Assembly (NCBI GenBank): GCA_963849335.1
Contig: CAWKGZ010000010.1
Location: 81,835 to 145,834 of the forward strand
Length of the DNA stretch: 64,000 bases
Reading direction: 5' to 3'
Origin: an uncultured Chloroflexia bacterium
GTDB taxonomy: Bacteria; Chloroflexota; Anaerolineae; Anaerolineales; UBA4823
Position 1 is the first letter of the stretch; every line of letters begins with the position of its first letter. This document shows positions 1,345-25,491 of the stretch, piece after piece. The notes under the pieces were generated by a model. That model was not told the DNA's origin and ran no database searches. It saw only the letters and a program-made list of their open reading frames with translations. The translations under genes were made by a program, and so were the position numbers.

Positions 1345-1372
1345 ACCGCAAAGAAGATCGAGAGGTCAAACT

Positions 1373-3641: not shown

Positions 3642-3658
3642 CCCTAAGGAGAGCGAAT

Positions 3659-4630: not shown

Positions 4631-4656
4631 TACGCAGACATTCAGGAGATCATCCT

Positions 4657-5997
4657 ATGGCTCTTAGTGGCATTCAAATCTACAAGTTACTTCCGCAAAC
4701 CAACTGTAAAGAGTGTGGTTTCCCCACCTGCCTGGCCTTTGCCATGAAACTGGCTGCAAAGCAGGTCGAACTGTCTGCCTGCCCCTACGTCAGCGAGACA
4801 TCCAAAACTCAGCTGGCCGAGTCGGCTGCCCCGCCCATCCGCCTTGTCACCCTCAAGGCAAATGGCTTTGAAGTCAAAGCGGGCAATGAAGTGGTACTCT
4901 TTAGGCATGACAAGACATTTTATAACAAACCGGGCATGTTCATCCGCATCTACGATGATACACCGCTCGACGATGTCCAGGCGAAGGTCAAAGCCGCCGA
5001 TAGCTATGCAGTTAACTATGTCGGTATGGATCTGACCCTGGATGGTTTCGGTGTGGCTTCCCGCGCCGGCAATCCTCAAGCCTTTGCTGCAGCTGTCTCG
5101 GCAGTCCGTTCAGTTAGTAAACGCCCTCTCATATTGATGAGCCGTGATCCCGCCATCATGGCTGCCGGACTCAGTGTTCTCTCCAACGAAATCCCACTGA
5201 TCTATGGCGCAGATGCATCGAATCTGGATGCATTTATCGATCTGGCTGTAAAATATAAGGCTCCCCTGGGCGTTCTGGCGTCTGATCTGGATACCATGGC
5301 CGACCTGACCGAAAAGATCAAGGCCAAAGGGGTGGAAGACTTGGTTCTCGATCCTGGTGGACGCGAACTTGGCACTGGCCTGGCTCTTGGGACTCAAATC
5401 CGTCGCCTTGCTGTGAAAAAGAACTTCCGCTCTCTCGGGTATCCGGTTATCGCCTTCCCCGGTGATGCAGCCGAATCAGGGTTGGAAGCTATTGCCGCCG
5501 CGCAGGCACTCGCCAAGTATGCCGGATTTATCGTACTGGATACGTTCACGCCATCCATGGCTTACCCCCTGTTGGTGCTGCGCCAGAACATCTACACCGA
5601 CCCCCAAAAACCGATCCAGGTTCAGCCGGGGATTTACGAGATCAATGCTCCCAAGCCGACAGATCCGGTATTGGTCACTACCAACTTCAGCATCACCTAC
5701 TTCAGCGTTGCGAATGAAGTTGAAGGTTCGGGGCTTCCTGCCTGGCTGCTGGTTACGGATGCCGAGGGCATGAGTGTTCTCACCGCCTGGGCGGCAGGGA
5801 AGTTTGACGCCGAAAGGATTGCCAAGGCAGTCAAGGCCTTCAACGTCGCCGATAAAGTCAGCCGTAAACGCCTGGTTCTGCCTGGTCATGTGGCCGTCCT
5901 CTCCGGTGAGTTGGAAGCAGAATTACCCGATTGGGAAATCCGGGTTGGCCCACGCGAAGCTGTCGATCTGCCCGGTTTCATGAAACAAGCTCTGTAA
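4657..5997 (+). CDS. acsC: Corrinoid iron-sulfur protein large subunit
   Basis: SD AGGAG precedes MALSGIQIYKLLPQTNCKECGFPTCLAFA. Other motifs are IYTDPQKP, VTTNFSITYF and SVLTAWAAGKF. Confidence 0.95.
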   Translation: MALSGIQIYKLLPQTNCKECGFPTCLAFAMKLAAKQVELSACPYVSETSKTQLAESAAPPIRLVTLKANGFEVKAGNEVVLFRHDKTFYNKPGMFIRIYDDTPLDDVQAKVKAADSYAVNYVGMDLTLDGFGVASRAGNPQAFAAAVSAVRSVSKRPLILMSRDPAIMAAGLSVLSNEIPLIYGADASNLDAFIDLAVKYKAPLGVLASDLDTMADLTEKIKAKGVEDLVLDPGGRELGTGLALGTQIRRLAVKKNFRSLGYPVIAFPGDAAESGLEAIAAAQALAKYAGFIVLDTFTPSMAYPLLVLRQNIYTDPQKPIQVQPGIYEINAPKPTDPVLVTTNFSITYFSVANEVEGSGLPAWLLVTDAEGMSVLTAWAAGKFDAERIAKAVKAFNVADKVSRKRLVLPGHVAVLSGELEAELPDWEIRVGPREAVDLPGFMKQAL

Positions 5998-6017
5998 CCA
6001 TTAATTCGCTGGATTGG

Positions 6018-7988: not shown

Positions 7989-8043
7989 TCTAACTACCAC
8001 CAATTACGGTTCTTAATCAGACAATTAAATCTAAGGAGATCCT

Positions 8044-8967
8044 ATGTATATTATTGGCGAAAACATCCATATACTTTCAGACAAAGTCAAGGAAGCCCTC
8101 AAGAACAGGGATGGTCGTTTCTTTCAGGAGCTGGCTGTCATGCAAGTCGAAGCCGGCGCTCAAGCGGTAGACCTCAACATGGGCCCTCGTAAAGCTGACT
8201 GGGCAGAAATTTTCCCCTGGATGACCGAGCTCGTTGAGGCTGTTGTGGACGTCCCCCTTTGCTTTGACAGCACCAACCTCCTCGGTATTGAGGCTGGGCT
8301 GAAGAAGATCACCAAAGCCCAGCCAATCATCAACTCCACCTCCGCTGAACCGGAGCGCCTGGAGAAAGTCCCCCTGATTGCCAAGCAGTACAACGCACGG
8401 CTCGTCGCCCTGACCCTCACCCCCAGTGGCATCCCCATTGCCGCTGATGAGCGTGTGAACATCGCCGTTGAAAAACTGATCCCGCGTATGGACGAAATCG
8501 GCTTCCCCATGCAAGATCTGATCATCGATCCCCTTGTGTTGACCGTATCCGGCTGTCAGCAATACTGCCCACACCTGATCGACGCCGTTCGAACCCTCCC
8601 CTACGCCTGGGATCCTGCGCCTGCGATTTCTGTCGGTCTTTCCAATGTATCCAATGCCGTGCCTCGCGAAGACCGCCCCCTGATCAACCGCGTTTACTGC
8701 GCCATGCTGATGGGTGCAGGTCTTCAAATGATGATTGCAGATCCATTAGACGAAGACCTTAAAACCACGATCCGGGTTATTGAGCAGCGCGATCAAACTA
8801 CCCCTCTCGCCCGCCTTTACTTGAAGATTGCCGACCGGATCGCTGCGATGGAAGAACCCATGCTCGAAGATATTGATCTGTCGGATCCAGAGCAGGCTGC
8901 AATCTGGAAAACCGTTCAAATTCTTCTCAACAAAGTCATCTATGCGGATGGCTATTTACAGCAATAA
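8044..8967 (+). CDS. acsE: Methyltetrahydrofolate:corrinoid/FeS protein methyltransferase
   Basis: Pterin-binding family motifs IIGENI, DST, IINSTSA, IDPLVL and GLSNVSN, located within the acs cluster. Confidence 0.9.
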   Translation: MYIIGENIHILSDKVKEALKNRDGRFFQELAVMQVEAGAQAVDLNMGPRKADWAEIFPWMTELVEAVVDVPLCFDSTNLLGIEAGLKKITKAQPIINSTSAEPERLEKVPLIAKQYNARLVALTLTPSGIPIAADERVNIAVEKLIPRMDEIGFPMQDLIIDPLVLTVSGCQQYCPHLIDAVRTLPYAWDPAPAISVGLSNVSNAVPREDRPLINRVYCAMLMGAGLQMMIADPLDEDLKTTIRVIEQRDQTTPLARLYLKIADRIAAMEEPMLEDIDLSDPEQAAIWKTVQILLNKVIYADGYLQQ

Positions 8968-8978
8968 GGAGATGCGTT

Positions 8979-10334
8979 ATGACCATACAAAGCCCCATCA
9001 ACATTGACGCTTTGCTCGCCAAAGCCAAGAAACCTTCAGCAGATGCGATGGTGCTGCACCCCTTCTACCGGGGTAAAGTTGAGACTGCCCTCAAGTGTTG
9101 CGTTCGCGATTTCAACGACTTTGCCATCTGGTACACCCCGGGGGTAGCCGCACCGTGCCGCGCCATTGCTGAGGATCCCGAAAAAGTGTACGAATATACC
9201 AACAAATGGAACACGGTGGCTGTTATCAGTGATGGCACCCGCGTGCTCGGTTTGGGCGATATTGGCCCCAAGGCGGGCTTACCGGTTATGGAGGGGAAAG
9301 CGCTGCTCTATAAATACCTGGGCGGCGTGGATGGTGTCGCCATCATGCTTGATACTAAAGACCCCGATGCGATCATTAATACCACCCTGCTGCTCCAACC
9401 GGGCATTGGCGGTGTTAACCTGGAAGATATTTCCAACCCCAAGTGCTTTTACATCCTTGACACCCTGCGCGAGAAAGCTGAAATCCCCATCTGGCACGAT
9501 GACCAGCAAGGCACCGCTACGGTCACCCTGGCTGGCTTTATCAATGCCCTAAAAGTGGTGAACAAGAAGATCAACGATGTCAAGATCACCTTCATTGGTG
9601 CTGGCGCCTCTAATGTTGCTATCTCCCGCCTGATCTTCAGCGCCGGTGCAGATCCGGCGAAATGTTTTGTCGTCGATAGCAAGGGTATCATGGGCAAGCA
9701 TCGCAGAGATATCGAAATGCGTAAAGCAGAATATGTGGACAAATGGAAATTGTGCAACATCACCAACGCTGAAGGTCGCGAAGGCAACATTCCCGATGCC
9801 ATCAAGGGCGCGGATGTTGTCATTGCCCTTTCTAAGTCTGGTCCAGGCGTCATCCTGCCCGAATGGATCGAGACCATGGCCAAGGATTCCATTGTCTTTG
9901 CTTGCGCCAACCCGGTTCCTGAGATTTGGCCCTGGGAGGCCAAAGCTGCCGGAGCTACAGTTGTCGCCACGGGGCGCTCGGACTTTGACAACCAGGTGAA
10001 CAATTCCCTGGGTTTCCCCGGCATCTTTCGCGGTACGCTGGATGTGCGTGCTCGCACCATTACCGATGAGATGTGCTTCGCGGCGGCCAAAGCCCTGGCC
10101 GATCACATCGGTAGTAACCTGAGTGAGAATCAAATCCTGCCGACCATGGATGACTGGGAAATCTTCCCCCGCGAAGCTGCCGCAGTCGCAGTCAAAGCCC
10201 AGGAACAGGGCCTCGCACGCATTTCGATTTCCTATGAGGATGAGTTCAAGCAAGCCATGGATATCATTTCACGGTCGCGCAATCTGACCCAGATGATGAT
10301 GAAAGATGGCTTCATCGCTGAAGCTCCCGTCTAA
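8979..10334 (+). CDS. Malic enzyme (NAD(P)-dependent, single-domain type)
   Basis: Motifs [48 protein letters not shown] and [12 protein letters not shown]. Confidence 0.93.
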
Positions 10335-10368
10335 ACCTGCCCAATATCAGAAAATGTCGAGGTGAATT

Positions 10369-11274
10369 ATGTATGATCTAATTGTAGTCGGTGGTGGTCC
10401 TGCAGGATTAACCGCAGCCATTTATGCCATTCGAAAACGCTTGAATATCCTTCTGGTCACACGCGACCTGGGTGGGAAAACGAATTTCCGCCTGGCCTTA
10501 CCCTGGGTCGAAGATTACCAGGTGATCCGCGGTTTAGAAATTGTCAACAAATTCAAGAGTGAATTAGAATATCTGGAATTTGCCCGCCACATGGAACCGG
10601 TAGACAAGATCTCCCGCCGCCCGGATGGTTTCGCAGTTCAAACCCGCGGTGGTGGCGAATTATCTACCAAAGCTGTGATCATCGCTACCGGCACCAAACA
10701 GCAGCGCTTGAACGTCCCCGGTGAAAAAGAATTCATGATGCGCGGCCTGTGTTACTCTGCCCTCAGCTATGCGCCTCTCTTTATTGATCGTGAAGTGGCG
10801 GTGATTGGGGATGGAGAATTGGCCCAGCGCTCCACCGCTGAGCTTGCGACTGTCGCTAAAAAAGCCACTTTGATCTGCCCATGCGACACCCTGCCGTTTA
10901 CCTCAGTCACAAAACGATTGGAATCCTCCGCCAATGTCACCATCCTCACCGGGCACCAGGTAGTCGATATCAAGGGTGATGACTACGCCAAATCCCTGGT
11001 GGTGCGTGACAGGCAGGGGAAAACTACAGAGCTGCCCGCCGAAGGCACCTTCGTTGAAATGGCTCTGGTTCCCAACTCCCAGATTGTAGCTGACTTTGTC
11101 GCCCTGGACGAGCAGAAGCGTATCATCATCGATTGCGGCAACCATACCAGTGTTCCCGGTATCTTTGCTGCCGGGGATGTAACCAACACGTACGCTGAAC
11201 AGGTCTTGGTTGCTGTCGGCGAAGGCGCCAAAGCGGCTCTCAGCGCGTACGATTATCTGCTTACCTTACCATAA
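10369..11274 (+). CDS. Thioredoxin-reductase-like FAD oxidoreductase lacking the CxxC motif
   Basis: Motifs GGGPAG, IIATG and FAAGDVT..Q..AVGEG. The canonical CATC position reads SALS (10756-10767). Confidence 0.8.
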   Translation: MYDLIVVGGGPAGLTAAIYAIRKRLNILLVTRDLGGKTNFRLALPWVEDYQVIRGLEIVNKFKSELEYLEFARHMEPVDKISRRPDGFAVQTRGGGELSTKAVIIATGTKQQRLNVPGEKEFMMRGLCYSALSYAPLFIDREVAVIGDGELAQRSTAELATVAKKATLICPCDTLPFTSVTKRLESSANVTILTGHQVVDIKGDDYAKSLVVRDRQGKTTELPAEGTFVEMALVPNSQIVADFVALDEQKRIIIDCGNHTSVPGIFAAGDVTNTYAEQVLVAVGEGAKAALSAYDYLLTLP

Positions 11275-11560: not shown

Positions 11561-14500
11561 ATGCCAACCGAGATTACACGCAATGGAAAAACCACCTCTG
11601 CCGAAGCCCTCATTGTTGGAGGTGGAATTGGCGGCATGCGCGCCGCTCTAGACCTGGCAGATGCCGGCCTTAAAGTCTACCTGGTAGAACAGACACCTTG
11701 CCTTGGAGGCCGAGTCGCCCAGCTGGGTTACATGTTCCCCCAACACGACTGTGTATTATGTCGTGGTACACCGGATCATGGCTATGGTTGCACCCGTCCA
11801 TCCATCTCGCCTGCTTATATCCAAAATAATCAGCACCCCAACATTGAAATCCTCACCAATACTGTGGTGTTAGATATTGAAGGCCAGGCTGGCGATTTTA
11901 CCATCGCCCTACGCCAGGAACCGCGCTATGTAGATACCATCAGATGTATCAACTGCGGTTACTGCACCCAGGTTTGCCCGGTTGAGCTGCCCAATGAATA
12001 CCAGTTCGGCATGGTCACCCGTAAAGCCGCTTATAAAGTCGCTACCCGTGCTGCCCCCGACTCATATGTGATTGATAAAGGCCCTTATTGCGATCCTTGC
12101 GGAAAATGTGTTGAGATATGTCCTACCAAAGCCATTAACCTGAATGAACAACCCCGGCTGTATTCCATTGAAGTCGGCGCCATCATCCTGGCCCTTGGTT
12201 TTAAGATTTATGATGCCCACCACCTGGAAGAGCTGGGGTATGGGCGCTATGCCAATGTGGTTGAGTCAATGCAATACGAACGGCTTGCCAGCCGTTCTGG
12301 TCCAACCGAAGGCATCGTAACCCGACCATCCGACGGCAAAAAACCCCGCTCGATTGCCTGGCTGCAGTGCATTGGCTCGCGCGACCAGGAAAACCAATTT
12401 TGCTCATCCATCTGCTGCATGTATGGCACAAAAGAAGCCATGCTGGCCAAACAGCGTCTTGGTGAACAAATACAATGCAGCGTGTTCATCATGGATGAGC
12501 GCGCATTTAACAAAGAATATACCGCCTATTTCGAACAAGCACGTAATGAGCATAATATCCAATACCTCCGCTGCCGTGTCTCAGCCATCCGCGAAGATCC
12601 GATCACCCAGGATCTCATCCTGCAGTATGCCGACCCGAATGGAGTTATGCACCATGAGCGCTATGACATGGTGGTACTGGCAACCGGACTGCAGCCACCT
12701 GATTCAGCCCATCATTTTACCGAGATGCTTGATCTGGAGTTGAACGAATACGGCTTCTGTAAAACCGAAAAGTTTACCCCCCTCACCACCACACACTCTG
12801 GTGTGTTTGTCTGTGGTGCCTTCTCCACTCCCAAGGAAATATCCGAGACAATTATCGATGCCAGTGGAGCAGCCGGTGAGGTGATGCGTCTGCTCAACGA
12901 GCGCATGAATGCCCATCCCTACAACAGAGAGAATCCATTTCTCGCCCCGGCAGATCTGCCCCCCGAGCGGGATATTAGTGCTGAGCCAGTCCGCGCCGGA
13001 GTATTCTTCTGCACCTGTGCAGGCACGATGGGTGAAACCCTTAATTCTTCAATGTTAATTGAGCAGGTGTCCCGCTGGCCAGGCGTTGCCACAGTACAGT
13101 TGTTAGACGTTGCCTGCTTCCCTGATACCCTGGAGAAAATTCAGCAGACAATCCATGAAAAGCAACTTAATCGCGTGGTTGTAGCTGCGTGCAGCAACCG
13201 TACCCATGAGTCGCTCTTTCAACGCGCAGCTCGTATGGCTGGTTTGAATTCCTACCTGCTGGAGTTAGTCAACCTGCGCGATCAATGTAGTGTTGTCCAC
13301 CACAACCAACCTGGGATGGCTAACCGTAAAGCCCTGGAGTTGGTTCGCCTGGCTCTTGGCCGGTTAATGTCCGCACAGGCGGTACATAAACAGGCTTACA
13401 TCTGTACTCCAACCGCCCTGATTATTGGTGGAGGCCTCTCAGGCATGACCGCTGCCCTCTCCATCGGTGATAGTGGTTACGATGTTATTCTGGTTGAACG
13501 CAATGAGTACCTGGGTGGCAACCTACAAAACCTTTACTATGTCGCTGAAGGTTACAATCCGCGTCGCTTAGGCCGTGACCTGATCAACCGCGTCCGCGCT
13601 CACCGCCACATTACCACCTATGCTCGCACCGAAGTGATCCAACACACAGGTCATGTTGGGAATTTCACCTCTCTGCTGCGAACCACCCATCCTGACGGCG
13701 CATCGGATACCTTCCGGGTGGATCATGGCGTGACGATTGTTGCGACCGGCGGTCGTGAAACCCATGATCACCCATGGTTGGCTCACTCTAAAGTACTTAC
13801 CCAATCCGAACTTGAAGAGAAGATTATTCACAAACCGCAGGAAATCGCCACCCTGAAAAATGTGGTTATGCTCCAATGTGCGATACAGCCTGGCGAAACC
13901 ATTTACTGCTCCCGGATTTGCTGCACCAATGCCCTCAAGAATGCCATCCGCCTCAAGCTGTTCAACCCCGGCTGTAATGTATATGTGCTCTTCAAGAATA
14001 TCGTCACTTATGGTTTTCGCGAAGAATACTACACTGAAGCCCGACGGTTGGGTGTTATCTTCATCCGCTATACGGATGAAGCCCCCCCTGACCTGTTTGA
14101 GCAGAATGGCCAGTTGTTTGTTCGTGTTCGCGACTTATCCCTCGATCGTTGGCTGACTCTGCCGGCTGACCTGGTGCCATTAAGCACAGCAATCGCCCCC
14201 AATCCTGGTGCCAAGGAACTGGCGCACACCTTGCGCGTGCCAATTTCCAGTGAAGGTTTCTTTGAGGAGGCTCAAATAAAGCTTCGCCCCATGGATTTCA
14301 TGCGCGAGGGTATTTTCCTGGCTGGTATGGCGCACTACCCCAAGTTTATTGAAGAAAGCATAGCGCACGCTTCTGCCGCTGCCGCCCGCGCCCTCACGCT
14401 GCTCTCCCAGGGTACCCTCTACCTGGGCGGTATTGTTGCCGTTGTAGACCCCGATAAATGCGTTGGCTGTCTCACCTGCACCCGTACCTGCCCCTTCTCC

Positions 14501-14740
14501 ATCCCACAGGTCATTCAGCAGGAGGGACGCAACGGGGTTGGCGGTCTGGGCGGAGCCGCCTTCATTGATCCGGCTCAATGTCAGGGTTGTGGCACCTGCA
14601 CCGGTGAATGTCCAGCCAATGCTATCCAACTGATCAACTATACCGACACTCAAATGCTGATGCGCGACATCGGCGGTCTTGGCAGCTGGCTTCCTCAGCC
14701 CCAGGTAGCCTTTAACCATAGCCCAGGTAACCATATATGA
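11561..14740 (+). CDS. hdrA: Heterodisulfide reductase A-like protein with two tandem HdrA modules
   Basis: Two FAD motifs (GGGIGG and GGGLSG), two C..CC sites (QCIGSRD..CSSICC and CSRICC), inserted and C-terminal 2[4Fe-4S] ferredoxin motifs, and KLRPMDF..GIFLAG.AHYPK. Confidence 0.92.
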   Translation: MPTEITRNGKTTSAEALIVGGGIGGMRAALDLADAGLKVYLVEQTPCLGGRVAQLGYMFPQHDCVLCRGTPDHGYGCTRPSISPAYIQNNQHPNIEILTNTVVLDIEGQAGDFTIALRQEPRYVDTIRCINCGYCTQVCPVELPNEYQFGMVTRKAAYKVATRAAPDSYVIDKGPYCDPCGKCVEICPTKAINLNEQPRLYSIEVGAIILALGFKIYDAHHLEELGYGRYANVVESMQYERLASRSGPTEGIVTRPSDGKKPRSIAWLQCIGSRDQENQFCSSICCMYGTKEAMLAKQRLGEQIQCSVFIMDERAFNKEYTAYFEQARNEHNIQYLRCRVSAIREDPITQDLILQYADPNGVMHHERYDMVVLATGLQPPDSAHHFTEMLDLELNEYGFCKTEKFTPLTTTHSGVFVCGAFSTPKEISETIIDASGAAGEVMRLLNERMNAHPYNRENPFLAPADLPPERDISAEPVRAGVFFCTCAGTMGETLNSSMLIEQVSRWPGVATVQLLDVACFPDTLEKIQQTIHEKQLNRVVVAACSNRTHESLFQRAARMAGLNSYLLELVNLRDQCSVVHHNQPGMANRKALELVRLALGRLMSAQAVHKQAYICTPTALIIGGGLSGMTAALSIGDSGYDVILVERNEYLGGNLQNLYYVAEGYNPRRLGRDLINRVRAHRHITTYARTEVIQHTGHVGNFTSLLRTTHPDGASDTFRVDHGVTIVATGGRETHDHPWLAHSKVLTQSELEEKIIHKPQEIATLKNVVMLQCAIQPGETIYCSRICCTNALKNAIRLKLFNPGCNVYVLFKNIVTYGFREEYYTEARRLGVIFIRYTDEAPPDLFEQNGQLFVRVRDLSLDRWLTLPADLVPLSTAIAPNPGAKELAHTLRVPISSEGFFEEAQIKLRPMDFMREGIFLAGMAHYPKFIEESIAHASAAAARALTLLSQGTLYLGGIVAVVDPDKCVGCLTCTRTCPFSIPQVIQQEGRNGVGGLGGAAFIDPAQCQGCGTCTGECPANAIQLINYTDTQMLMRDIGGLGSWLPQPQVAFNHSPGNHI

Positions 14741-15231
14741 GTAATTCATTCAATTCCTTTGAGCCTGAAATCACTGCCTTTTATTGCATTTACTGCGGTT
14801 ATATGGCTGCGGACACGGCTGGTGCACTTAACCTACAATATCCAGCCAATGTCAAGTTCGTCCGCATGCCCTGTACCGGAAAAACCGACATACGCTACCT
14901 GCTTGAAGCCTTTGAGCAGGGTGCCGACGGTGTCTACGTGGTTGCCTGTCCCATTGGCAACTGTCACCACGTGCGTGGCAATGAGCGCGGGTTGGCCCGC
15001 CTCCAACGCGCCAAAAAGATCCTAGACGATATTGGCATTGGCGGAGACCGTTTGGATATGTTCTTCATGTCCGGCAGCCAGGCAAACATCTACGCTCAGG
15101 CAGCTATAACCATGACCGAGCGAATCAGGCGGTTAGGTCCCAATCCCCTCAAGCTGGCTGAGCTCCGTGCCAACCAGCCGCCTGGCGCTGATGAAGTCGA
15201 GGAAGAGTCGAACTATCGGCGGCGCAAATAA
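14737..15231 (+). CDS. mvhD: MvhD-type [2Fe-2S] hydrogenase delta subunit (Cys form)
   Basis: Motifs FYCIYCGYMAAD, MPCTGK and GADGVYVVACPIGNCHH..GN. The start overlaps the hdrA stop (ATGA). Confidence 0.92.
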   Translation: MSNSFNSFEPEITAFYCIYCGYMAADTAGALNLQYPANVKFVRMPCTGKTDIRYLLEAFEQGADGVYVVACPIGNCHHVRGNERGLARLQRAKKILDDIGIGGDRLDMFFMSGSQANIYAQAAITMTERIRRLGPNPLKLAELRANQPPGADEVEEESNYRRRK

Positions 15232-15283
15232 GAACCTATATGCTAAGCAATGTTCCCGCATCACAACTTAGGTTGTCACAAGG

Positions 15284-18200
15284 ATGAGTAATTTGGTTGG
15301 TAAACCTGAAAATCCGATCGGTGCGGTGATGGTCCTGGGCGGTGGTATTGCCGGCATGCAGGCATCCCTTGACCTGGCTGATCAAGGTTTCAAGGTTTTC
15401 CTGGTTGAGAAACAGTCCGCGATTGGCGGCAAAATGGCCCAGTTGGATAAGACTTTCCCCACCAATGACTGCGCCATGTGCACCATCTCTCCCAAGCTGG
15501 TGGAGACCGGTCGCCACCCCAACATCCATCTCATGACCAATTCTGAGCTGGTCTCCGTTTCCGGACAGGCTGGAAATTTCACCGTCGATATACACCACCA
15601 GCCGCGTTATATTGACCTGAGCAAATGCATTGCTTGCGGCGATTGTGCCAAAGTTTGTCCGGTGATCCGCCCTGATCAATTTAACCAATCGCTGAACGAT
15701 TGCCGGGCCGCCTACAAACTCTACCCGCAAGCTGTCCCCAATGCCTATGCCATTGAAAAACGAGGTATTGCCCCCTGTCGCGACGCCTGCCCCGCCGGGC
15801 AGCGTGCCCAGGGCTACATCGCCTTGATCCGTGAAGGGCGCTGGCAGGATGCCATGCGCGTCATCAAGATGGACAATCCCTTCCCGGGCATCTGCGGGCG
15901 CATTTGCAACCATCGCTGCGAGACAGCCTGTAATCGCGGCCTGGTGGATGAGCCAATCAACATCCGGGCACTAAAACGATTCGTCACCGACCAGGTTTAT
16001 GCTGAGCCCCGCCCGGAAATTCAACCGCTCCCCATCACCCATCCTGAGCAGCGTGTCGCCATAATCGGTGCCGGCCCTTGTGGGCTGACAGCCGCCCAGG
16101 ATATCATCCAGAACGGCTTTCCGGTAACTGTTTTTGAAGCCATGCCCGTTGCCGGTGGCATGCTCCGCCTCGGTGTGCCTGAATTCCGCCTGCCTGCCGA
16201 GATTATCGAACGAGAAGTACAGGATGTCATTGATCTGGGTGTAGAACTGCGTCTCAATACCCAGGTAAACAATCTGGATGATTTGTTCGCTGCCGGCTTC
16301 TCTGCGGTTCTGATTGCCGTCGGTGCCCACGAGGGCATTCGCTTACCCATCCCGGGTGCCAATCTGGATGGTGTTCTGATCAATACCCGCTTCCTCCGTG
16401 ATGTACGCCTGGGCAAGTACCAGGTTACCAATTGTTGGCCTGCAAACTGATCCCGCTGCCCCGCTTCTTGGCAAGCATGTCCTGGTGTTAGGCGGAGGAA
16501 ATGTAGCCATTGATGTCGCTCGCAGTGCCGTGCGCCTTGGTTGCCAGGTATCGATGGCCTGCCTTGAAGGCCAGGATCAAATGCCGGCCCACCCCTGGGA
16601 GGTTGAAGCCGCCCGGGCAGAAGGGATCACTCTGTATCCCAAACGCTCCTTCGAGCGCGTCCTCGGCGACCAAAATGGTCTTGTCACGGGCGTTGAGTGT
16701 ATGCATGTCAGCACTTTTTCCTTCGATGAAACCGGTCGCCTCAACGTAGAGAAGGTCAACGACTCAAACCATGTTCTCCCTTGCGACACAGTCATCTTTT
16801 CTGTCGGTCAGAGAGCCGGTCTGGCTTTCATCCCCGATGACGCCGGTGTCGGTCTGACCACCCGTAAAACCATCGCCGTCAATCCCAACACCTTTGCCGC
16901 CACCCGTCCGGGTGTTTTCGCTGCTGGCGACAGCGTTTCGGGCACTGCTTTTGTGATTGAGTCGGTAGACAGCGGTCATAAATCCGCCCAGGCAATTATC
17001 CGCTACCTGCAGGGCGATCATATGGAGCCGCCTCTCAAGCCCGAGCTTCCGGTGGTCCACCTTGAACCTGCAGAAATCCAGGACCGTTTGCTCAAGGGCG
17101 AGATTAAGCTCCAGCCGCGTATTCCTCTCCCCGAGCTGCCTGTGGAACGGCGCATGAACAACTTCGTCGAGGTGGAATCAGGCTACGATGAAGCCTCTGC
17201 CCAGGCCGAAGCCGCCCGCTGTCTTGCCTGCGGGATCTGTTCGGAGTGTATGTCCTGTGTCTTCGCTTGCGGTGTCAATGCAATCAACCATGACATGCCC
17301 GCAGAACAGGAACGTGTTCAGGTCGGCGCCATCATCCTCACCCCTGGATATGAGGCATATCCTGCCGAGCTCTCCGCAGAGTATGGTTTTGGGCGCTACC
17401 CGAATGTGCTCACCTCCTTACAATTCGAGCGTATGCTCTCTGCATCTGGGCCAACCATGGGCCACATTCAACGGCCCTCTGACCACAAGACGCCTGACCG
17501 GATAGCTTTCTTGCAGTGTGTCGGTTCGCGTGATAAGGATCATGATTATTGCTCTTCCGTTTGCTGCATGGTTTCCACCAAAGAAGCCATCATGGCCAAA
17601 GAGCACGAACGTCACTTGAACATCCAAATCTTCATGATGGATATGCGTGCCTTCTCAAAAGGCTATTCGGCTTATTACGAACGCGCCAGCCAGGCATACG
17701 GTATCCAATACACCCGCTGCCGGATCAGCGCCCTGCGCCAGGACCCATCTTCACAAGATTTGATCGTCACCTACCAGGACGAGTCTGGGCAACGCAACAG
17801 CGAAACATTTGACATGGTTGTACTCTCTGTGGGTATGCAGATCCCCGCATCTACCCGTGCCCTGGGTGGATTGTTGGATATTGAGCTTGATCAATATGGA
17901 TTCTGTCACACCCCAGGGTTGAATCCGCTTGAAACCATCCGCCCGGGTGTCTTTGCCGCTGGCCCCTTCCGCGAGCCAAAAGATATCCCTGAATCTGTGA
18001 TTGAAGCCAGCGCCGCAGCAGCCTCTGCCGCCTGCCTGGTAAGTCCAGCTCGCTTCTCGCTGACCACCCAAATTGAATTTCCCCCCGAGCGAGATGTGCA
18101 CAATGAACAGCCCCGCATTGGAATATTTGTCTGCCACTGCGGCTCGAATATTGGGGGTTACCTGGATGTCCCAACCGTCACCGAATACGCCGCTACATTA

Positions 18201-19901
18201 CCCAATGTGGTTCATGCTGAGAATAATCTCTACACCTGTTCACAGGATAGCATCCGCCATATCACCGAACAGATCCGGGAATATGACCTGAACCGGGTTG
18301 TAGTGGCCTCCTGTACTCCTCGTACCCACGAGCCACTATTCCAGGACAGCCTGCGCGCCGCAGGATTGAACCCCTACCTGTTCGAGATGGCCAATATACG
18401 TAATCACTGTTCCTGGGTTCACTCCTCGGATCGCCCCGCAGCCACACAAAAAGCTCGTGAATTGGTTCGCATGGCCGCCGCCCGGGCTGCCTTGCTCGAG
18501 CCTCAACAAACGATTCAGGTACCAGTCGAACACACCGCTTTGGTGATTGGCGCCGGCGCTGCTGGCATGACAACTGCCATCTCGCTCAGTCAGCAGGGCT
18601 TTCCTGTCCATCTGGTGGAGCGGTCATCAGAACCGGGTGGGAACCTGCACCATCTCTTCACCGCACCACCCCACATTCATCTGGATCATCCACGCCACCC
18701 CCAGATGGTTCTCCAATCCCTTATCCAGCAGGTGCACGCTGACCCTGGGATCACCCTACATCTAAACAGCGAGGTCCTTTCCACACGTGGCTTCACTGGC
18801 AATTTCGTCAGTACACTGCGTTCTGCGGATGGCTCACGCACCGAACTATCTCATGGAGCTACCATCCTCGCCACCGGCGCGGTCGAGTACCGTGGCAACG
18901 ATTATGGGTACGGTTCAGACCCCCGCATCTTGACCCAGCAAGAATTTGAAGCCTGCTATTTTGCCAACCCATCCAATGTGACCAATGCCTCGCTGCCCTC
19001 ATCGGTGGTGATGATCCAATGCATCGGTCCTGCCGAAACCACCTGCACCCGCATCTGTTGTACTTCTGCAATAAAAAATGCGCTTGCCCTCAAAGATAAA
19101 AATCCGTCCGCTGAGGTGGTAATCCTATATAAAGATATCCGCACCTACGGATTGCAGGAACAGCTCTACACCGAGGCTCGCCGTAGAGGTGTGCTCTTCA
19201 TCCGCTACGATACCGCCTCCCGTCCCCAGGTATCCGGTCACGGAATCTCAGACCAACCCCTCAGTGTGCAGGTATGGGAACCTCACCTTAATCGCACTAT
19301 CCTCCTCAACCCTGATCTATTGATCCTCTCCATGCCGGCCATTCCTCAGCCCGATGCCCACGAGTTGGCCGCCCGCTTCAAGGTTCCTGCGGATGCCAGC
19401 GGGTTCCTGCTTGAAGCCCATGTAAAACTCCGCCCGGTGGATTTTTCCAGCGATGGCATCTTCATGGCTGGGATGGCCCATTATCCCAAATCCCTTGATG
19501 AAAGTCTTGTCCAGGCTCAGGCAGCCGCCGCCAGAGCCGCCCGCATCCTTTCCCGTCAAACCATTTCTGCCGGTGGGAGGGTAGCGGTAGTGAACCCCGC
19601 CTTGTGCACAGGCTGCCTCACCTGCGTCCGCATCTGCCCATTCCATGTGCCCGTCATTTCACCCGACTTGGTTGGAGTCGGTGGTATCCGCGGTGCCGCG
19701 CAAATCGAAGCTGCCATCTGCCAGGGCTGTGGCTCCTGCGCAGCCGAATGCCCTGCGCGTGCCATCCAGTTGATGCATTACACTGATTCTCAAATGATTG
19801 CCAAAGTAGGAGCCTTATTAGAACTAGATACATCCCTGATCCCCCTGGCTGAGATTGCTGTCGCAGAACCGGACACCATGCCGTTTGGAGGTGTGTTATG
19901 A
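15284..19901 (+). CDS. hdrA: Giant HdrA/HdrL-like protein (~1540 aa) with an inserted GltD-like FAD/NAD(P)H module; apparent +1 insertion near 16430
   Basis: HdrA N-terminus LDKTFPTNDCAMC. The GltD-like module carries CRDACP..PFPGICGRIC..CETAC, GAGPCG and GGGNVAIDVAR. Tandem HdrA modules follow. ORFs 15284-16450 and 16398-19901 join in a +1 shift. Confidence 0.88.
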
Positions 19902-20344
19902 CCCCCACCCTTCAAATCGTCGCCTATGCCTGTGAACATTGTGCCTATAATGCTGCCGATCTGGCTGGGGGGCTGCGCATGCAATACCCCCCAACGATAA
20001 AGATCGTCCTTTTACCTTGTACGGGTCGCCTGGATGTGATCATGGTATTACACGCCCTGGAAGAAGGTGCCGACGGGATCATGGTCGCAGGTTGACTGCC
20101 CGGCGACTGTCATTACCTGGAAGGTAATGTAAATGCAAAAAGGCGAATTATATACATTAAATCATTACTCAAAGATATCGGGCTGGAACCGGATCGGGTC
20201 CAAATGTACCATATATCATCTGCCCAGGCAGCCCAGTTTGCCCAGGCTGCTACTGAGATGAACGACCGCATCACATCGCTTGGTCCTAATCCGCTGCGTA
20301 TGCCCAGAACACCCATCGGAAACACTGAACCGCCCAATGAATAA
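19898..20344 (+). CDS. mvhD: MvhD-type [2Fe-2S] protein, selenocysteine-containing (UGA 20093-20095), 148 aa
   Basis: It reads GADGIMVAG-UGA-LPGDCHYLEGN. The UGA sits at the conserved Cys seen in the paralog (VVACPIGNCHH). The frame stays open and MvhD-like to TAA at 20342-20344. Confidence 0.9.
20111..20129 (+). promoter_or_regulatory. Bacterial SECIS-like hairpin
   Basis: CATTACCT-GGA-AGGTAATG is a perfect 8 bp stem with a G-containing loop, starting at the 16th nt after the in-frame UGA. Confidence 0.75.
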
Positions 20345-20395
20345 GATCACAATTACCCCGTCAAGGGAATTGGAACCCTAAATAGGAGGTGGAAT

Positions 20396-21082
20396 ATGAT
20401 TGTAGCAGAGCAAAAATCCCTGGAAGAGCTAAAAACCCTGATCGGTGATGCCCGGAAAGTGCTGGTCGTCGGCTGCGGTACCTGCGTGACCGTCTGCTTT
20501 GCCGGCGGCGAGCGGGAGGCAGCCATCGTTTCATCATCGTTGCGCATGGCCAGCACCCTCGAAGGCCGGCCCAGGCAGATCCACGATGTTACGGTTCAAC
20601 GCCAGTGTGAATGGGAATATCTGGATCAAATCGCTGAACAGATCAGCGATGCAGATCTGGTTCTTTCCCTGGCTTGCGGAATTGGGGTCCAGGCGATCGC
20701 TGAACACTTCCCCAAGACCTGGGTTGTTCCAGGTTTGAACACCAGCTTTCTCGGTTTACCCAGTGAGCAGGGTGTTTGGGTAGAGCGCTGTGCGGCCTGC
20801 GGCGACTGCATCCTCGGCCTTACCGGTGGTATCTGCCCGATCGCCCGCTGCTCGAAATCCTTGCTGAATGGTCCTTGCGGTGGCTCCGAAAATGGGCATT
20901 GTGAAATTGACCCCGAAGTCGATTGCGCCTGGCAGCTCATCTATGATCGCCTCACCGCCATGGGAAAAACGCAGGTACTTTTCAACATCCAACCCATCAA
21001 AAATTGGCGTACTTCGCGGGATGGTGGTCCGCGCAAAATCGTCCGTCCAGATTTGCGCCTTGCTGCGGAACAGGAGGAATAA
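20396..21082 (+). CDS. metV: Methylenetetrahydrofolate reductase small subunit (MTHFR_C, Cys-rich)
   Basis: Motifs GCGTCVTVC, RQCE, LACGIG and CAACGDC..TGGICPIARCSKSLLNGPCGG....CE......CAW. Strong SD AGGAGG. Confidence 0.92.
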   Translation: MIVAEQKSLEELKTLIGDARKVLVVGCGTCVTVCFAGGEREAAIVSSSLRMASTLEGRPRQIHDVTVQRQCEWEYLDQIAEQISDADLVLSLACGIGVQAIAEHFPKTWVVPGLNTSFLGLPSEQGVWVERCAACGDCILGLTGGICPIARCSKSLLNGPCGGSENGHCEIDPEVDCAWQLIYDRLTAMGKTQVLFNIQPIKNWRTSRDGGPRKIVRPDLRLAAEQEE

Positions 21083-21085
21083 TCC

Positions 21086-22123
21086 ATGTCTGCTGATGTT
21101 TCTACCAACGGTTATTTAAGCGGTTCCAACCTCGAAAAAGTCCTGCGTTCCGGCGTCTTTGCCGTCACCGGCGAGGTCGGTCCACCGCAATCTGCGGATG
21201 CAAAGGTGGTTCGTGACAAAGCTTCTCTGTTGATTGGCAACTGCGACGCGGTCAACATCACCGATAACCAAACGGCTATTGTGCGCATGTCCAGCATCGG
21301 TGCTGGAACTCTGGTCTTGAACCAGGGTTTGGAACCAATTATCCAGATGGTATGCCGTGACCGCAACCGTTTAGCCATGCAAAGCGACTTGCTCGGTGCT
21401 TACGCCCTTGGTATCCGCAATTTGCTTTGCCTTTCTGGGGATCATCAAACCTTCGGAAATCATCCCAATTCCAAGAATGTTTATGATTTGGATTCTGTCC
21501 AAATGATCCAGATGGTAGCCGAGATGCGCGACAAGCATGTCTTCCAATGCGGTGATCCGATCAAAGGTGTGGAACCCCGTTTCTTTGTCGGTGCGGCAGC
21601 TGCACCCTTTGCTGGTCCGGTCGAATATCGACCCTACCGCCTGGCTAAAAAAGTTCAGGCTGGAGCGAACTTCATCCAGACCCAATTGATCTATGATATG
21701 GATGCCTTCAAAGTTTTTATGGAAAAGGTACGCCAGTTGGGATTGCACGAGAAAACTTATATCCTGGCCGGTGTTGGTCCGATTAAGAGCCCTGCCATGG
21801 CAAAGTATATGAAAGACAGCGTCCCCGGCATCCTGGTTCCCGATGTCCTGATCGACCGCATGACTGCCGCCGGCAAACCCTGGGCTCACATTGGTAAAGA
21901 CCAGCTCACCAAGGAAGACAAGAAAGCTCGCTCCGAAGCCTGGAAGGCAGAAGGTATCAAAATTTGCATCGAGCTGGTCCAACAGCTCCGGGAAATCGAA
22001 GGCGTCGCTGGCGCGCACATCATGTCCATCGAATGGGAAGAAGCCATCCAACCTATCGTCGCAGGCGCCGGGTTGCTGCCCCGCCCTGTGATCCAGGATA
22101 GGCTGCCCCAACCGGTGCCTTAG
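21086..22123 (+). CDS. metF: Methylenetetrahydrofolate reductase
   Basis: Motifs TGEVGPP, NITDNQ, CRDRNR, LSGDH, KKVQAGANFIQTQ and AHIM. Confidence 0.93.
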   Translation: MSADVSTNGYLSGSNLEKVLRSGVFAVTGEVGPPQSADAKVVRDKASLLIGNCDAVNITDNQTAIVRMSSIGAGTLVLNQGLEPIIQMVCRDRNRLAMQSDLLGAYALGIRNLLCLSGDHQTFGNHPNSKNVYDLDSVQMIQMVAEMRDKHVFQCGDPIKGVEPRFFVGAAAAPFAGPVEYRPYRLAKKVQAGANFIQTQLIYDMDAFKVFMEKVRQLGLHEKTYILAGVGPIKSPAMAKYMKDSVPGILVPDVLIDRMTAAGKPWAHIGKDQLTKEDKKARSEAWKAEGIKICIELVQQLREIEGVAGAHIMSIEWEEAIQPIVAGAGLLPRPVIQDRLPQPVP

Positions 22124-22133
22124 GAGTTAGACT

Positions 22134-23555
22134 ATGACCGATCCCCAAATGCCTTCACCGAAACCCTTTACCATCAACCAAAACCTCGCTAGACGAATCC
22201 AGGATGAGCTTGGGCAGAACGTCTTCCTGTGCTACCAATGCATCAAGTGCACCAGTGGTTGTCCTGTAGCCGAATTCTTTGACTGGCAGCCAAATCAGAT
22301 CATGCGCGCGCTTCAATTAGGCGATGAGCAGATTGCGCTCCATGCAGAGACCCCCTGGTTGTGCGCTTCCTGCCAGACCTGCACCACTCGCTGCCCACAA
22401 GATTTGAACATCGCTGGCATTATGGATTTTCTTACCCGTGAATCGGTCAGGGTTGGTGTACAGCCTCCCATCCCGCAGGTGAATACCTTCAACCAGGCCT
22501 TCTTACGCGAGGTGCGCCTGTGGGGTCGTTCCTACGAACCAGGCTTGATGATTGAAATGGCGCTGCATGGTCCCCGGGCATTGCTGGAGGATACAAAGCT
22601 GTATATCAGCATGCTCAAAAAGGGAAAGGTTAGCTTCTTCCCAGAGCTAACCCGTCCGCATCACAATGTAAAACCAATCCCTGGTGCCAACCATGCCGTC
22701 GCATATTATCCTGGCTGTTCTCTCCACTCCAGCGCAACAGAATTCGATCATTCCACCCGGACAGTGTGTGAGGCTCTTGGTCTCAACCTGGTCGAGCCGG
22801 AAGGTTGGCTGTGCTGCGGTGCCAGTGCGGCCCATCGCGCCGATCCACATGAAGCGCTCCGCCTGCCCATGGAAAACCTGGCATTGATTGAGCAGAGCGG
22901 TTTCAATGAGGTTTCGATGCCCTGCGCAGCGTGCTTCAACCGTCACAAAGCTGCTCAGTATGAGATCCGCCACAGCGCGCAGCATAAAGCTGCCATCGAT
23001 GAGCAAATTGGCTATGTTTATCAAGATCAGGTAGCTGTCACCACCATGGTCCAATCGCTGCTGAAGCACATCGGGACGGATAAAATAAGCCGGGCAGTGA
23101 AAAAACCACTCAAAGATCTCAATGTGGTCTGTTATTATGGCTGTCTGATAACCCGTCCACCTCAGATAACGCAGTATGAACATCCCGAAAATCCCACCGA
23201 TATGGATGAGTTGGTCCAGGCGCTGGGAGCCGAGGTTCATGACTGGTCATATAAAACATGCTGCTGTGGTGCCGCACACTCGTTGACCCGCCCAGATATT
23301 GTGGTCAATCTCAGTACCTCTCTGATCTTGAACGCACACGCTGCCGGTGCGGAAGCCATCGTTGTATCCTGCCCGCTCTGTCACATGAACCTGGATGCCC
23401 GTCAAATGCAGATGGATATTGCTGAACCGATGCCCATCCTGTATTTCTCCCAGCTGATGGCAGTGGCACTCGACCTGCCTCTCAAGGCTGCTGCCCTGAA
23501 CAAGAACCTGGTCAACCCAATGCCGCTTCTGCGCCAGAAAGGATTCATCGACTGA
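22134..23555 (+). CDS. Fused HdrC-HdrB heterodisulfide reductase-like protein
   Basis: N-terminal CYQCIKCTSGCP and WLCASCQTCTTRCP (HdrC). Two CCG domains, YYPGC..CCG..PCAAC and YYGC..CCG..SCPLC (HdrB). Confidence 0.9.
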   Translation: MTDPQMPSPKPFTINQNLARRIQDELGQNVFLCYQCIKCTSGCPVAEFFDWQPNQIMRALQLGDEQIALHAETPWLCASCQTCTTRCPQDLNIAGIMDFLTRESVRVGVQPPIPQVNTFNQAFLREVRLWGRSYEPGLMIEMALHGPRALLEDTKLYISMLKKGKVSFFPELTRPHHNVKPIPGANHAVAYYPGCSLHSSATEFDHSTRTVCEALGLNLVEPEGWLCCGASAAHRADPHEALRLPMENLALIEQSGFNEVSMPCAACFNRHKAAQYEIRHSAQHKAAIDEQIGYVYQDQVAVTTMVQSLLKHIGTDKISRAVKKPLKDLNVVCYYGCLITRPPQITQYEHPENPTDMDELVQALGAEVHDWSYKTCCCGAAHSLTRPDIVVNLSTSLILNAHAAGAEAIVVSCPLCHMNLDARQMQMDIAEPMPILYFSQLMAVALDLPLKAAALNKNLVNPMPLLRQKGFID

Positions 23556-23564
23556 TTTAATCGT

Positions 23565-23903
23565 ATGCCTGACTCTAGCACACTGACTCGGAACTTATCC
23601 CTGCGTAAAATCGTGTTGCTAAAGACTGGCCAGGATGTGAGACGCTGCATGGCCTGTCAGTTTTGCGATGTCATACCCAGCCATGAATTGGACATCCCGC
23701 TTACCAGTATGATCCAATTGATCAACCTGAATGATGAAGAGGTTCTTACCAGTAAAACCCTCTGGTCCGCGGAAGTTCTGACCCATGCGAGGGAGGCGTG
23801 CTCTCGCCAATTAAATTTAGAAGCTATCATCCTCGCCCTGCGCAGCGAAGCCGTGCTTCGCGGGCTGGTGCCAGAGGAGATAGCCAAAAAGGATGAACTA
23901 TGA
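23565..23903 (+). CDS. Degenerate HdrC-like small FeS protein
   Basis: GQDVRRCMACQFC...SKTLW...EACSRQLNL..I..LR.EA parallels HdrC but retains only four Cys. Confidence 0.65.
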   Translation: MPDSSTLTRNLSLRKIVLLKTGQDVRRCMACQFCDVIPSHELDIPLTSMIQLINLNDEEVLTSKTLWSAEVLTHAREACSRQLNLEAIILALRSEAVLRGLVPEEIAKKDEL

Positions 23904-24703
23904 AACTAGCCATCAGTGGAAAAGGTGGGGTCGGCAAGACTACTCTCGCTGCATTACTATCGCAGGTTTACGCCGATGCGGGACGCCAGGTCTTGGCCGT
24001 TGACGCAGACCCATCTCCCTGCCTGGCGGGTGCCCTCGGCTTTCCAACGGAGCTGCGCCAGCGCTTGCACCCGATTGCCGAGATGGATGCCCTGATCGAA
24101 GAACGCACCGGGGCAAAACCTGGCACCATCGGTGGCTTCTTCACTATCAATCCCCGAGTGGATGATATCCCCGAACGCTTCAGTGTGATGTACAAAGGTG
24201 TCCGTTTGCTCGAAATGGGCTCCGTAGATCTTGGCGGTTCCGGCTGCATTTGTCCCGAAGCTGCCATGCTTAAAACTCTCTTCACCCACCTGCTTTTCCG
24301 TCCCGATGATATCCTGATCCTGGATATGTACGCCGGCGTCGAACACCTCGGGCGTGCCACGGTTGATTTCGTCGACGCCATGCTGATCGTTGTGGAACCT
24401 ACCCGCCGCAGTATCGGCACCGCCACCCAGATCGTGAAACTTGCGCAGGATATCGGTTTGAAACGTCTCTGGTTGGTCGGCAATAAAGTCCGTAACCCTG
24501 ACGAAGGCAATTTCCTCCTTGAGAATACACCCGGAATCCCTGTTCTCGGTTGGCTGCCTGCTGATCTTGGCGTACAGGAAGCAGACCGGCTCGGAATCCC
24601 CGTCTATGACCATGTCCCTGCCCTGCGCCAGATTGCCAGCCAGCTTGCTGATCTTCTATCTCAACAAATCGCAGCCACAAGCCAGGAGAACACCGCCGCA
24701 TGA
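23900..24703 (+). CDS. cooC: CODH/ACS nickel-insertion ATPase
   Basis: Motifs GKGGVGKT, DADP, GCIC and D..AGVEHLGR. Confidence 0.9.
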   Translation: MKLAISGKGGVGKTTLAALLSQVYADAGRQVLAVDADPSPCLAGALGFPTELRQRLHPIAEMDALIEERTGAKPGTIGGFFTINPRVDDIPERFSVMYKGVRLLEMGSVDLGGSGCICPEAAMLKTLFTHLLFRPDDILILDMYAGVEHLGRATVDFVDAMLIVVEPTRRSIGTATQIVKLAQDIGLKRLWLVGNKVRNPDEGNFLLENTPGIPVLGWLPADLGVQEADRLGIPVYDHVPALRQIASQLADLLSQQIAATSQENTAA

Positions 24704-25491
24704 CCACCACTATCGCATTAGCCGGTAAAGGCGGTGTGGGGAAAACCACCGTCTCAGGCATGATTATAAAATACCTGGTTCAAAATCAATCCGGCCCCAT
24801 CCTCGCCATTGATGCTGACCCAAGCAGCAATCTGAACATGGTTCTTGGCCTTGATTTGGATGTCACCGTCGGTGACATCCGTGAAGACATGCTTGCCCAG
24901 GTAAAGCACTCGCTTCTTGGGACTGGCGCTGCCATGGGCGGGCTGCCCGGTGGTATTTCGAAACACGACTATCTCGACCACCAGATCCGTTCCTCCCTGT
25001 CTGAAGGAAAGGCTTTTGATCTCATCGCCATGGGTCGTGGCGAGGGGACCGGTTGCTACTGCGCTGTCAATCACAACCTGCGTGAAGTTATCGATGCCAT
25101 CAGCAAAAATTATCGCTATGTTGTCATTGACAATGAAGCCGGCATGGAACACCTCAGCCGGCGTACCACTCGCGATGTCCAGCACCTGATCATTGTCAGC
25201 GATCCTACGCAGCGTGGGATAATTGCCGCCAGCCGGATCGCCGAAATAAGTAAAGAGTTGGATATCCGCATCGAAAATGCATATTTAGTCATCAACCGTC
25301 TGGCAGGGGATATCCCACCTGCACTGGACACTTATATTAAAACCAACCTGGATGTACCTCTCCTGGGAACCATCCCTAGCGATTCAATGCTGATGGATTT
25401 TGAGTACAGCGGGCGCCCACTGGTCGAGTTAGGCGATCAATCCCCGGTCTACCAATCCGTTGCCCGCATGCTGGACCAGATTTTATCGTAA
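24700..25491 (+). CDS. cooC: CODH/ACS nickel-insertion ATPase (second paralog, AcsF-like)
   Basis: Motifs GKGGVGKT, DADP, GCYC and DNEAGMEHLSRRT. Confidence 0.9.
   Translation: MTTTIALAGKGGVGKTTVSGMIIKYLVQNQSGPILAIDADPSSNLNMVLGLDLDVTVGDIREDMLAQVKHSLLGTGAAMGGLPGGISKHDYLDHQIRSSLSEGKAFDLIAMGRGEGTGCYCAVNHNLREVIDAISKNYRYVVIDNEAGMEHLSRRTTRDVQHLIIVSDPTQRGIIAASRIAEISKELDIRIENAYLVINRLAGDIPPALDTYIKTNLDVPLLGTIPSDSMLMDFEYSGRPLVELGDQSPVYQSVARMLDQILS

Follow-up and report, generated by a model that had tools for sequence, protein, structure and literature searches.

A second HdrA-MvhD pair beside a type IV methylene-tetrahydrofolate reductase in Anaerolineae

Why should a methylene-tetrahydrofolate (methylene-THF) reductase be encoded together with two tandem-module HdrA proteins, each followed by its own MvhD adaptor? 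The question is raised by a block of genes in 64,000 nt of contig CAWKGZ010000010.1 (the window, meaning the whole stretch), where an HdrA of 1059 aa (HdrA1) and its MvhD precede an HdrL-type HdrA, a second MvhD, MetV, MetF and a fused HdrCB. An earlier note on this DNA had taken the block for a methylene-THF reductase of Hdr type, from an Anaerolineae bacterium that has the Wood-Ljungdahl pathway (WLP), and was right in this; the genes it had listed, through to an HdrC-like open reading frame (ORF) and two cooC genes, are all present in the order claimed. Judged by gene content, the HdrL-MvhD-MetVF-HdrCB part is the known type IV (Hdr-type) reductase, and the block as a whole appears to be a Moorella-type enzyme with a second, lineage-specific flavin/iron-sulfur module, HdrA1-MvhD1, in a common and conserved variant. 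Through the added module the enzyme likely gains a port of ferredoxin type in addition to its predicted NADH port. The reading we prefer, at a probability of about 0.5, is that two interchangeable HdrA-MvhD front-ends serve a single MetVF-HdrCB core, with NADH predicted for one and ferredoxin or a similar low-potential partner for the other. The genes of the block are the following (TrxR, thioredoxin reductase; SECIS, selenocysteine insertion sequence).

11561..14740, + strand: hdrA1, 1059 aa, two TrxR/FAD modules
11750..11800, + strand: relay loop of HdrA1, with the Cys64/Cys67 pair and a 13-residue insertion holding His73 and a third cysteine, Cys77
14737..15231, + strand: mvhD1, cysteine type
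15284..19901, + strand: hdrL, an HdrA of Moorella type whose GltD insert has an NADH-type motif; the frame is broken near 16433-16436
19898..20344, + strand: mvhD2, with an in-frame UGA at 20093-20095, likely selenocysteine 66
20111..20129, + strand: SECIS-like hairpin in mvhD2
20396..21082, + strand: metV (PF12225)
21086..22123, + strand: metF (PF02219)
22134..23555, + strand: fused hdrCB, with 8 cysteines of cubane and 10 of CCG type
23565..23903, + strand: one-cluster HdrC paralogue, 112 aa, optional

A known reductase with an added HdrA-MvhD pair

With metV and metF clustered with hdrA, hdrB, hdrC and mvhD, the block has the gene set of a type IV (Hdr-type) methylene-THF reductase as defined in PMC8760232. 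It shares with the type IV enzymes of Moorella thermoacetica and Sporomusa ovata (PMC9430772, PMC8760232, PMC13391211) MetV, MetF, MvhD, HdrC/B and a tandem HdrA of about 1500 aa that carries GltD and has Glu/Lys in both modules; PMC9430772 gives the M. thermoacetica HdrA a length of 1487 aa, a pair of TrxR modules and an inserted GltD. Unlike these enzymes, the block has a second tandem HdrA with an open ferredoxin domain and its own MvhD, a fused hdrCB after metF, a likely selenocysteine MvhD2 and an optional one-cluster HdrC, and no menaquinone genes were found in its genome. An hdrABC-mvhD-metVF cluster from marine Anaerolineae was reported in 2017 (Sewell et al., PMC5736913) which is similar in class, fused hdrCB and WLP context; the text of its section 9 mentions no second hdrA-mvhD pair, although its Fig. 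2 may draw one. The order hdrA-mvhD-metVF-hdrCB has also been described in Actinobacteria (PMC7325909), and hdrA-mvhD-metVF in Acetothermia (PMC9586279). HdrL was named in Desulfobacterium autotrophicum, where an HdrA-GltD fusion is likewise followed by mvhD and one locus holds hdrL and hdrA in tandem, but the text of PMC2702500 gives these HdrL/HdrA-MvhD loci no link to metVF. The earlier note had not recognised the full architecture, which holds for the HdrA1-MvhD1 addition, not found described in the literature searched, but not for the known core.

A survey of the best 80 of 165 relatives gave 77 loci, nearly all from Anaerolineae or Chloroflexota. The order hdrA1-mvhD-hdrL occurs in 70/77 and all seven genes stand in order in 42/77, the remainder being mostly cut short or having a third module. 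Gene order is kept more often than chance, and of the synteny that the earlier note had proposed to search for (hdrA/hdrL-mvhD-metVF-hdrCB next to acsB) the Hdr-Met part is conserved. Three of the 77 loci (L106, L117 and, by placement, L111) are from Acidobacteria, the range beyond Chloroflexota being partly sampled. The HdrA1 loop was matched in at least 71/301 genomes of the class, a lower bound because divergent HdrA1 can escape the 50-aa loop query (at least one, L138, did), and in 7/301 genomes of a phylum sample, three of them outside the class. Among the 71 genomes, 70 have metV and 68 acsB; conversely, 45 of the 112 genomes with both acsB and metV gave no match to the loop. Rnf was no correlate of HdrA1, with RnfD in 0/35 positive and 0/45 negative genomes, and RnfD was not found in this genome either. 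A location in the acs cluster is not obligatory: of 46 informative loci, only 18 have acsE on the upstream side.

Some loci depart from the common order. Eight of the 77 have a third hdrL; a third hdrL-mvhD module was noted in L023, L027, L029, L048, L050, L053, L057, L071, L085, L116 and L117, with response-regulator-like and other signalling genes between the two hdrL copies. In L155 and L157, which belong to one family, hdrA1 has no adjacent mvhD and is followed by a gene for a molybdoprotein of the xanthine dehydrogenase family (L155) or an ORF of similar size (L157). In L132, L134 and L140, an NADPH-type hdrL-mvhD is followed by genes for the small and large subunits of a [NiFe]-hydrogenase, which stand between metV and metF.

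Both HdrAs have the same domain order: FAD1, Cys pair, inserted ferredoxin domain, HA4, arm domain, FAD2, HA4 and C-terminal ferredoxin domain. In HdrA1 the inserted 2x[4Fe-4S] domain is open, i.e. uninterrupted by GltD, whereas in HdrL the GltD module interrupts this low-potential domain. Equivalents of Glu356 and Lys409 are invariant in all four modules (HdrA1 63/63, HdrL 54/54). The Cys pair and inserted ferredoxin domain are confined to module 1, being found in module 2 in 0/63 HdrA1 and 0/54 HdrL, and the full set of Cys pair, inserted domain and arm (HA3, C-terminal ferredoxin domain and MvhD) occurs once per protein, from module 1 plus the module-2 arm. In Hdr from methanogens, one protomer's arm serves its partner's FAD, Cys pair and inserted ferredoxin domain (PMC13580544; PMC12350162). 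Together, this geometry and the restriction to module 1 would give one full kit per fused HdrA. By analogy, each HdrA is likely a fused pseudo-dimer with one bifurcating FAD, so that there would be two working flavins, not four. The four HdrA FAD modules of the earlier note are all there with their Glu/Lys, but four active flavins are not indicated, the second modules having neither Cys pair nor inserted ferredoxin domain.

A close parallel is BamDEF of the class II benzoyl-CoA reductase (BCRII) of Geobacter metallireducens, with its fused HdrA dimer, N-terminal Cys pair and Lys, inserted ferredoxin exit, MvhD adaptor and HdrCB-like fusion (bioRxiv 10.64898/2026.04.10.717634). In BamE, the fused dimer, the second FAD is described as non-bifurcating and the inserted domain as the low-potential exit. 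It differs in that its second FAD has Gln and feeds a tungsten enzyme, whereas HdrA1 has Lys in both modules, a three-Cys loop and the link to MetVF. An AlphaFold2 model of HdrA1 (pTM 0.88) is confident except for residues 56-81 and the termini, and its best fold matches are HdrA structures. The curated families NF041778, NF040770, TIGR03288 and TIGR03290, which represent methanogen HdrABC (CoM-S-S-CoB reductase), all stayed below their cut-offs, and by sequence the protein set would resemble Hdr in its working but fall outside these families. In a quick tree, from which 37 of 103 rows were left out (mostly non-Hdr or without the segment), HdrA1 forms one side of a branch with support 99, the order of origin relative to HdrL not being settled by it.

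Front-ends and carriers

The GltD module of HdrL has an invariant acidic residue (54/54) where NADPH-binding Nfn subunits have arginines, so NADH is predicted for HdrL. In three-module loci, wherever both HdrL copies could be read (11/11), the acidic motif is found in the first copy and an Arg-bearing motif of NADPH type in the second. A built-in pyridine-nucleotide input, as the earlier note had it, is present, but is no novelty, since the M. thermoacetica HdrA has the same GltD insert; the NAD(P)H-binding GltD module of the Moorella form is here, in an HdrA that the frame break splits in this assembly.

The docking of these modules is best seen in loci of unusual composition. In 74/74 loci, a few of them counted twice, metV has an MvhD domain no more than 1.4 kb upstream. 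We fetched 20 of the 45 HdrA1-negative genomes, and in 11/20 of their loci hdrCB is not in the fetched stretch, while in 6/20 a GltD-ferredoxin-MvhD fusion without an HdrA flavin module stands directly before metV, which argues that MvhD, not HdrC, tracks MetV. This fusion of about 700 aa precedes metVF in L126, L130, L135, L137, L141 and L145 and is likely, from its sequence, a minimal non-bifurcating NADH input. S. ovata pull-downs are reported to recover MetV with HdrA and not with HdrB (PMC9430772). Among 20 loci picked for unusual spacing, seven have HdrA1-MvhD-MetV-MetF with no HdrL between. HdrA1-MvhD standing alone before metVF suggests that the modules are likely interchangeable ports of ferredoxin, NADH or NADPH type, and a carrier-specific menu of front-ends on one MetVF core would be the simplest reading.

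How such front-ends might work can be proposed by analogy with the structures of methanogen Hdr and BamE. On this view each HdrA would fold as a pseudo-dimer that has a single arm, one bifurcating FAD and three ports. The arm (C-terminal ferredoxin domain plus MvhD) would receive MetV and form the two-electron port, at about -200 mV; the low-potential port would be the inserted ferredoxin domain, occupied by the NADH-type GltD in HdrL and open in HdrA1; and HA4 would lead to HdrCB as the high-potential port to a carrier X. The potentials, with MetVF at -200 mV and NADH at -320 mV, place the third carrier at about -80 mV, and a ferredoxin at -420 to -500 mV would place it at +20 to +100 mV. HdrL would confurcate NADH and X in its reduced form (about -80 mV) onto methylene-THF, or work in the opposite direction in methyl oxidation, as has been put forward for Moorella, and HdrA1 would do likewise with ferredoxin, permitting a weaker X (+20 to +100 mV). 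The best guess for X may be an electron-transferring flavoprotein (ETF), as in BCRII, where ETF binds the HdrCB-like BamD (bioRxiv 10.64898/2026.04.10.717634), or a dithiol. The NADH case, with its value of about -80 mV, agrees with the present model for Moorella, in which NADH and menaquinol are confurcated (PMC13391211). The self-contained complex of the earlier note is doubtful, as the third carrier at HdrCB was not identified among the products of the block.

Several points weigh against two interchangeable front-ends. Neither menD nor MqnA/D was found in this 88%-complete genome, so a plain transfer of the Moorella quinone to it is not warranted; nor was any gene of the block recognised as coding for a ferredoxin that could partner the open domain of HdrA1. 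The second modules keep Glu/Lys (63/63 and 54/54) where BamE has Gln, and may not be idle. In the seven genomes with HdrA1 alone, the absence of HdrL applies to that locus only, and their HdrA1 has diverged (42-59% identity); some genomes have hdrA1 at a distance from metVF. Related genomes are not independent, and gene order does not amount to physical binding.

One alternative, which we regard as unlikely, is a cascade in series: NADH-level electrons would enter at MvhD1, HdrA1 would bifurcate them to ferredoxin, and the high-potential electron would pass to HdrL and be confurcated with NADH onto methylene-THF (3 NADH + ferredoxin + 2 methylene-THF). The prevalent order hdrA1-mvhD-hdrL would fit, as would the absence of RnfD from all 80 genomes; one bifurcation from NADH reaches only -360 to -440 mV, so two stages would help, and BCRII does join two bifurcation modules. 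Such a series is at odds with HdrA1-MvhD before metVF without HdrL in seven loci, with the loop match missing in 45/112 genomes with acsB and metV, and with the look of a carrier menu in three-module loci.

It is likewise rather improbable that HdrA1-MvhD1 forms a separate arm, receiving electrons from a partner made elsewhere (an MvhAG hydrogenase or formate dehydrogenase), sharing only HdrCB and leaving MetVF untouched, or that its rebuilt loop has left it unable to bifurcate. Just upstream of cooS there is a hydrogenase locus, hdrCBA-mvhDGA, a similar H2 link has been proposed for Acetothermia (PMC9586279), and in a few loci the genes before hdrA1 have N-termini resembling an NAD-linked formate dehydrogenase complex; several genomes have hdrA1 detached from metVF, and a three-Cys/His site could bind a structural metal. 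The upstream hydrogenase, however, has an MvhD and an HdrA of its own, and HdrA1 is accompanied by metV in 70/71 genomes and directly precedes it in seven.

Distinctly unlikely is the wiring of the earlier note, in which NADH enters at GltD and one bifurcation supplies ferredoxin and, via HdrCB, methylene-THF, with no other carrier. The Glu/Lys signatures are all intact, HdrA1 has an intact inserted ferredoxin domain of the type that reduces ferredoxin in methanogens (PMC12350162), and this was the original Moorella proposal (PMC5736913; PMC8760232). [quoted passage not shown] NADH-ferredoxin-methylene-THF coupling as claimed is therefore not the likeliest.

In the assembly HdrL is read as two overlapping frames (15284-16450 and 16398-19901), and the claim of an HdrA of about 1540 aa with GltD inside an inserted ferredoxin domain is borne out for the module layout but not for a single ORF in this sequence. 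Contigs of four other sequencing runs, from relatives about 90% identical, have one base fewer at 16433-16436, and in 54 relatives HdrL is a single intact frame of at least 1480 aa; the genome is unusual in its own genus, where among the matches listed none of the other 21 genomes has a full-length HdrL-like match, some of these genomes being fragmented. As fhs, an fdhA, hdrB and mvhG are likewise split elsewhere in the assembly and acsB slips into acsD, all indicative of assembly indels, the extra base in hdrL is likely an assembly error. A true pseudogene in this strain, which would leave HdrA1-MvhD1 as the sole front-end, is highly improbable: the break does stand in the assembled sequence and no reads of the same strain were available (the best run contains 0.28 of the words, and the one RNA run yielded contigs of relatives only), but every conserved ligand is retained in both halves.

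The relay site of HdrA1 and its MvhD

The electron has to cross 22-28 Å from MvhD to the bifurcating FAD, and how it does so counts as a critical gap in structure papers of 2026 (PMC13580544; bioRxiv 10.64898/2026.04.10.717634); in methanogens the Cys pair and Asp71 of MvhD bind an unidentified ligand in a 22-Å gap between MvhD and FAD (PMC13580544). This site is altered in HdrA1, where the 13-residue insertion sits directly after the Cys pair. Cys64, Cys67 and Cys77 are kept in 63/63 HdrA1 sequences (in a wider set, Cys77 in 63/64 and His73 in 62/64). MvhD1 has Pro/Asn at the positions of methanogen MvhD His68/Asp71; Asn takes the Asp71 position in 76/76 readable copies of the MvhD after HdrA1 (77 found), versus Asp/Glu in 63/66 copies after HdrL. 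As hdrA1 and its mvhD are inherited together, the pairing of loop and Asn may be one evolutionary event rather than many. In the AlphaFold2 model, the relay loop (residues 56-81) has pLDDT below 50 and fits either the presence or the absence of a cofactor, which is a hypothesis here. A double HdrA-MvhD pair or a three-Cys loop was not found described in the literature searched, which reaches few subscription papers, and the second front-end with its altered relay site is unreported as far as searched.

A bolder joint reading, tentative and with the odds against it, would make HdrA1-MvhD1 a distinct clade of bifurcating HdrA with a rebuilt relay, in which a third Cys and histidines of HdrA1 stand in for the MvhD Asp/His and hold a metal or iron-sulfur cluster, and in which the open domain couples methylene-THF to ferredoxin or directly to CO dehydrogenase. 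If true, this would be the first ferredoxin-coupled type IV reductase, with a front-end swap among ferredoxin, NADH and NADPH, in about a quarter of Anaerolineae.

Remaining subunits, surroundings and meaning

The earlier note's two distinct MvhD adaptors are found: mvhD1 is of the Cys type and mvhD2 has UGA, and its selenocysteine call for the latter is supported. Codon 66 is UGA in 47/54 downstream mvhD copies and Cys in the other seven, compared with Cys in 71/71 copies of the first mvhD. An 8-bp hairpin lies 3' of the UGA, weak by itself (z -1.57), with a mean energy of -7.3 kcal/mol in UGA copies vs. -3.3 in the seven Cys copies, and the genome has selA and tRNA-Sec. With the UGA at a Cys ligand position, UGA66 of MvhD2 likely encodes selenocysteine.

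Each of the 18 cluster cysteines of hdrCB is kept in 37/37 relatives. The 112-aa ORF is HdrC-like by profile and features, and the claimed extra HdrC-like gene is present, but it has four of the eight cubane cysteines (7/7 copies), enough for one cluster and not for the two of HdrC, and with an occurrence in 6/36 informative loci it is optional and was rejected as a core subunit. In 21 loci (among them L107:12919-13485) hdrCB is followed by a conserved protein of about 188 aa with no Pfam match at E 1e-8; the window has the small HdrC at this place.

The neighbours of the block in the window are these.

82..8967, + strand: cooS (3' part), acsB, acsD, acsC, acsV (RACo) and acsE
8979..11274, + strand: malic enzyme and a TrxB-like flavoprotein without CxxC, separating acsE from hdrA1
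23900..25491, + strand: two cooC-type (AcsF/CooC) ATPases

Flanking by cooC and acs genes, as claimed, applies to the two adjoining cooC; the acs genes are kept apart by the malic enzyme and TrxB-like genes. The latter (10369-11274), which accompanies malic enzyme, has CxxC in only 1/11 orthologues. Intergenic gaps within the block are -4 to 52 nt; scans for promoters (8 vs. 12.5) and terminators (15 vs. 13.6) were at chance level, so co-transcription is argued from gene spacing alone. The acsB and acsD genes at 1373-4630 form one 1085-aa ORF via a frame slip near 3620-3640, and a natural AcsB-AcsD fusion in the window was rejected, as the usual AcsB end turns up again in the next frame. Natural fusions may exist elsewhere: L086 encodes a 1333-aa AcsB-linker-AcsD protein, and several genomes of the class have AcsB frames of more than 1200 aa.

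A locus that resembles those of methanogens, hdrC-hdrB-hdrA-mvhD-mvhG-mvhA-protease (L118:10463-17550), stands directly before cooS, at 3-9 kb upstream of the window, and extends the cluster; frame breaks split its hdrB and mvhG. The same genome has one ETF alpha match, folD, fhs, formate dehydrogenase, a group 4-like membrane hydrogenase cluster and complex I genes (the last two labels being our reading of the ORFs), as well as further Hdr-like loci with a GltD-containing HdrA and MvhD (L119, L120), one of them with Flx-like neighbours.

[quoted passage not shown] The family offers natural swaps on one MetVF core, with NADH, NADPH, open ferredoxin-type and flavin-less minimal front-ends plus a rebuilt relay site, which makes both the coupling and the electron transfer from MvhD to FAD testable by comparison. 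Anaerolineae with the WLP are abundant in sediments, and as RnfD was found in none of the 80 genomes searched, this enzyme may be central to their redox balance.

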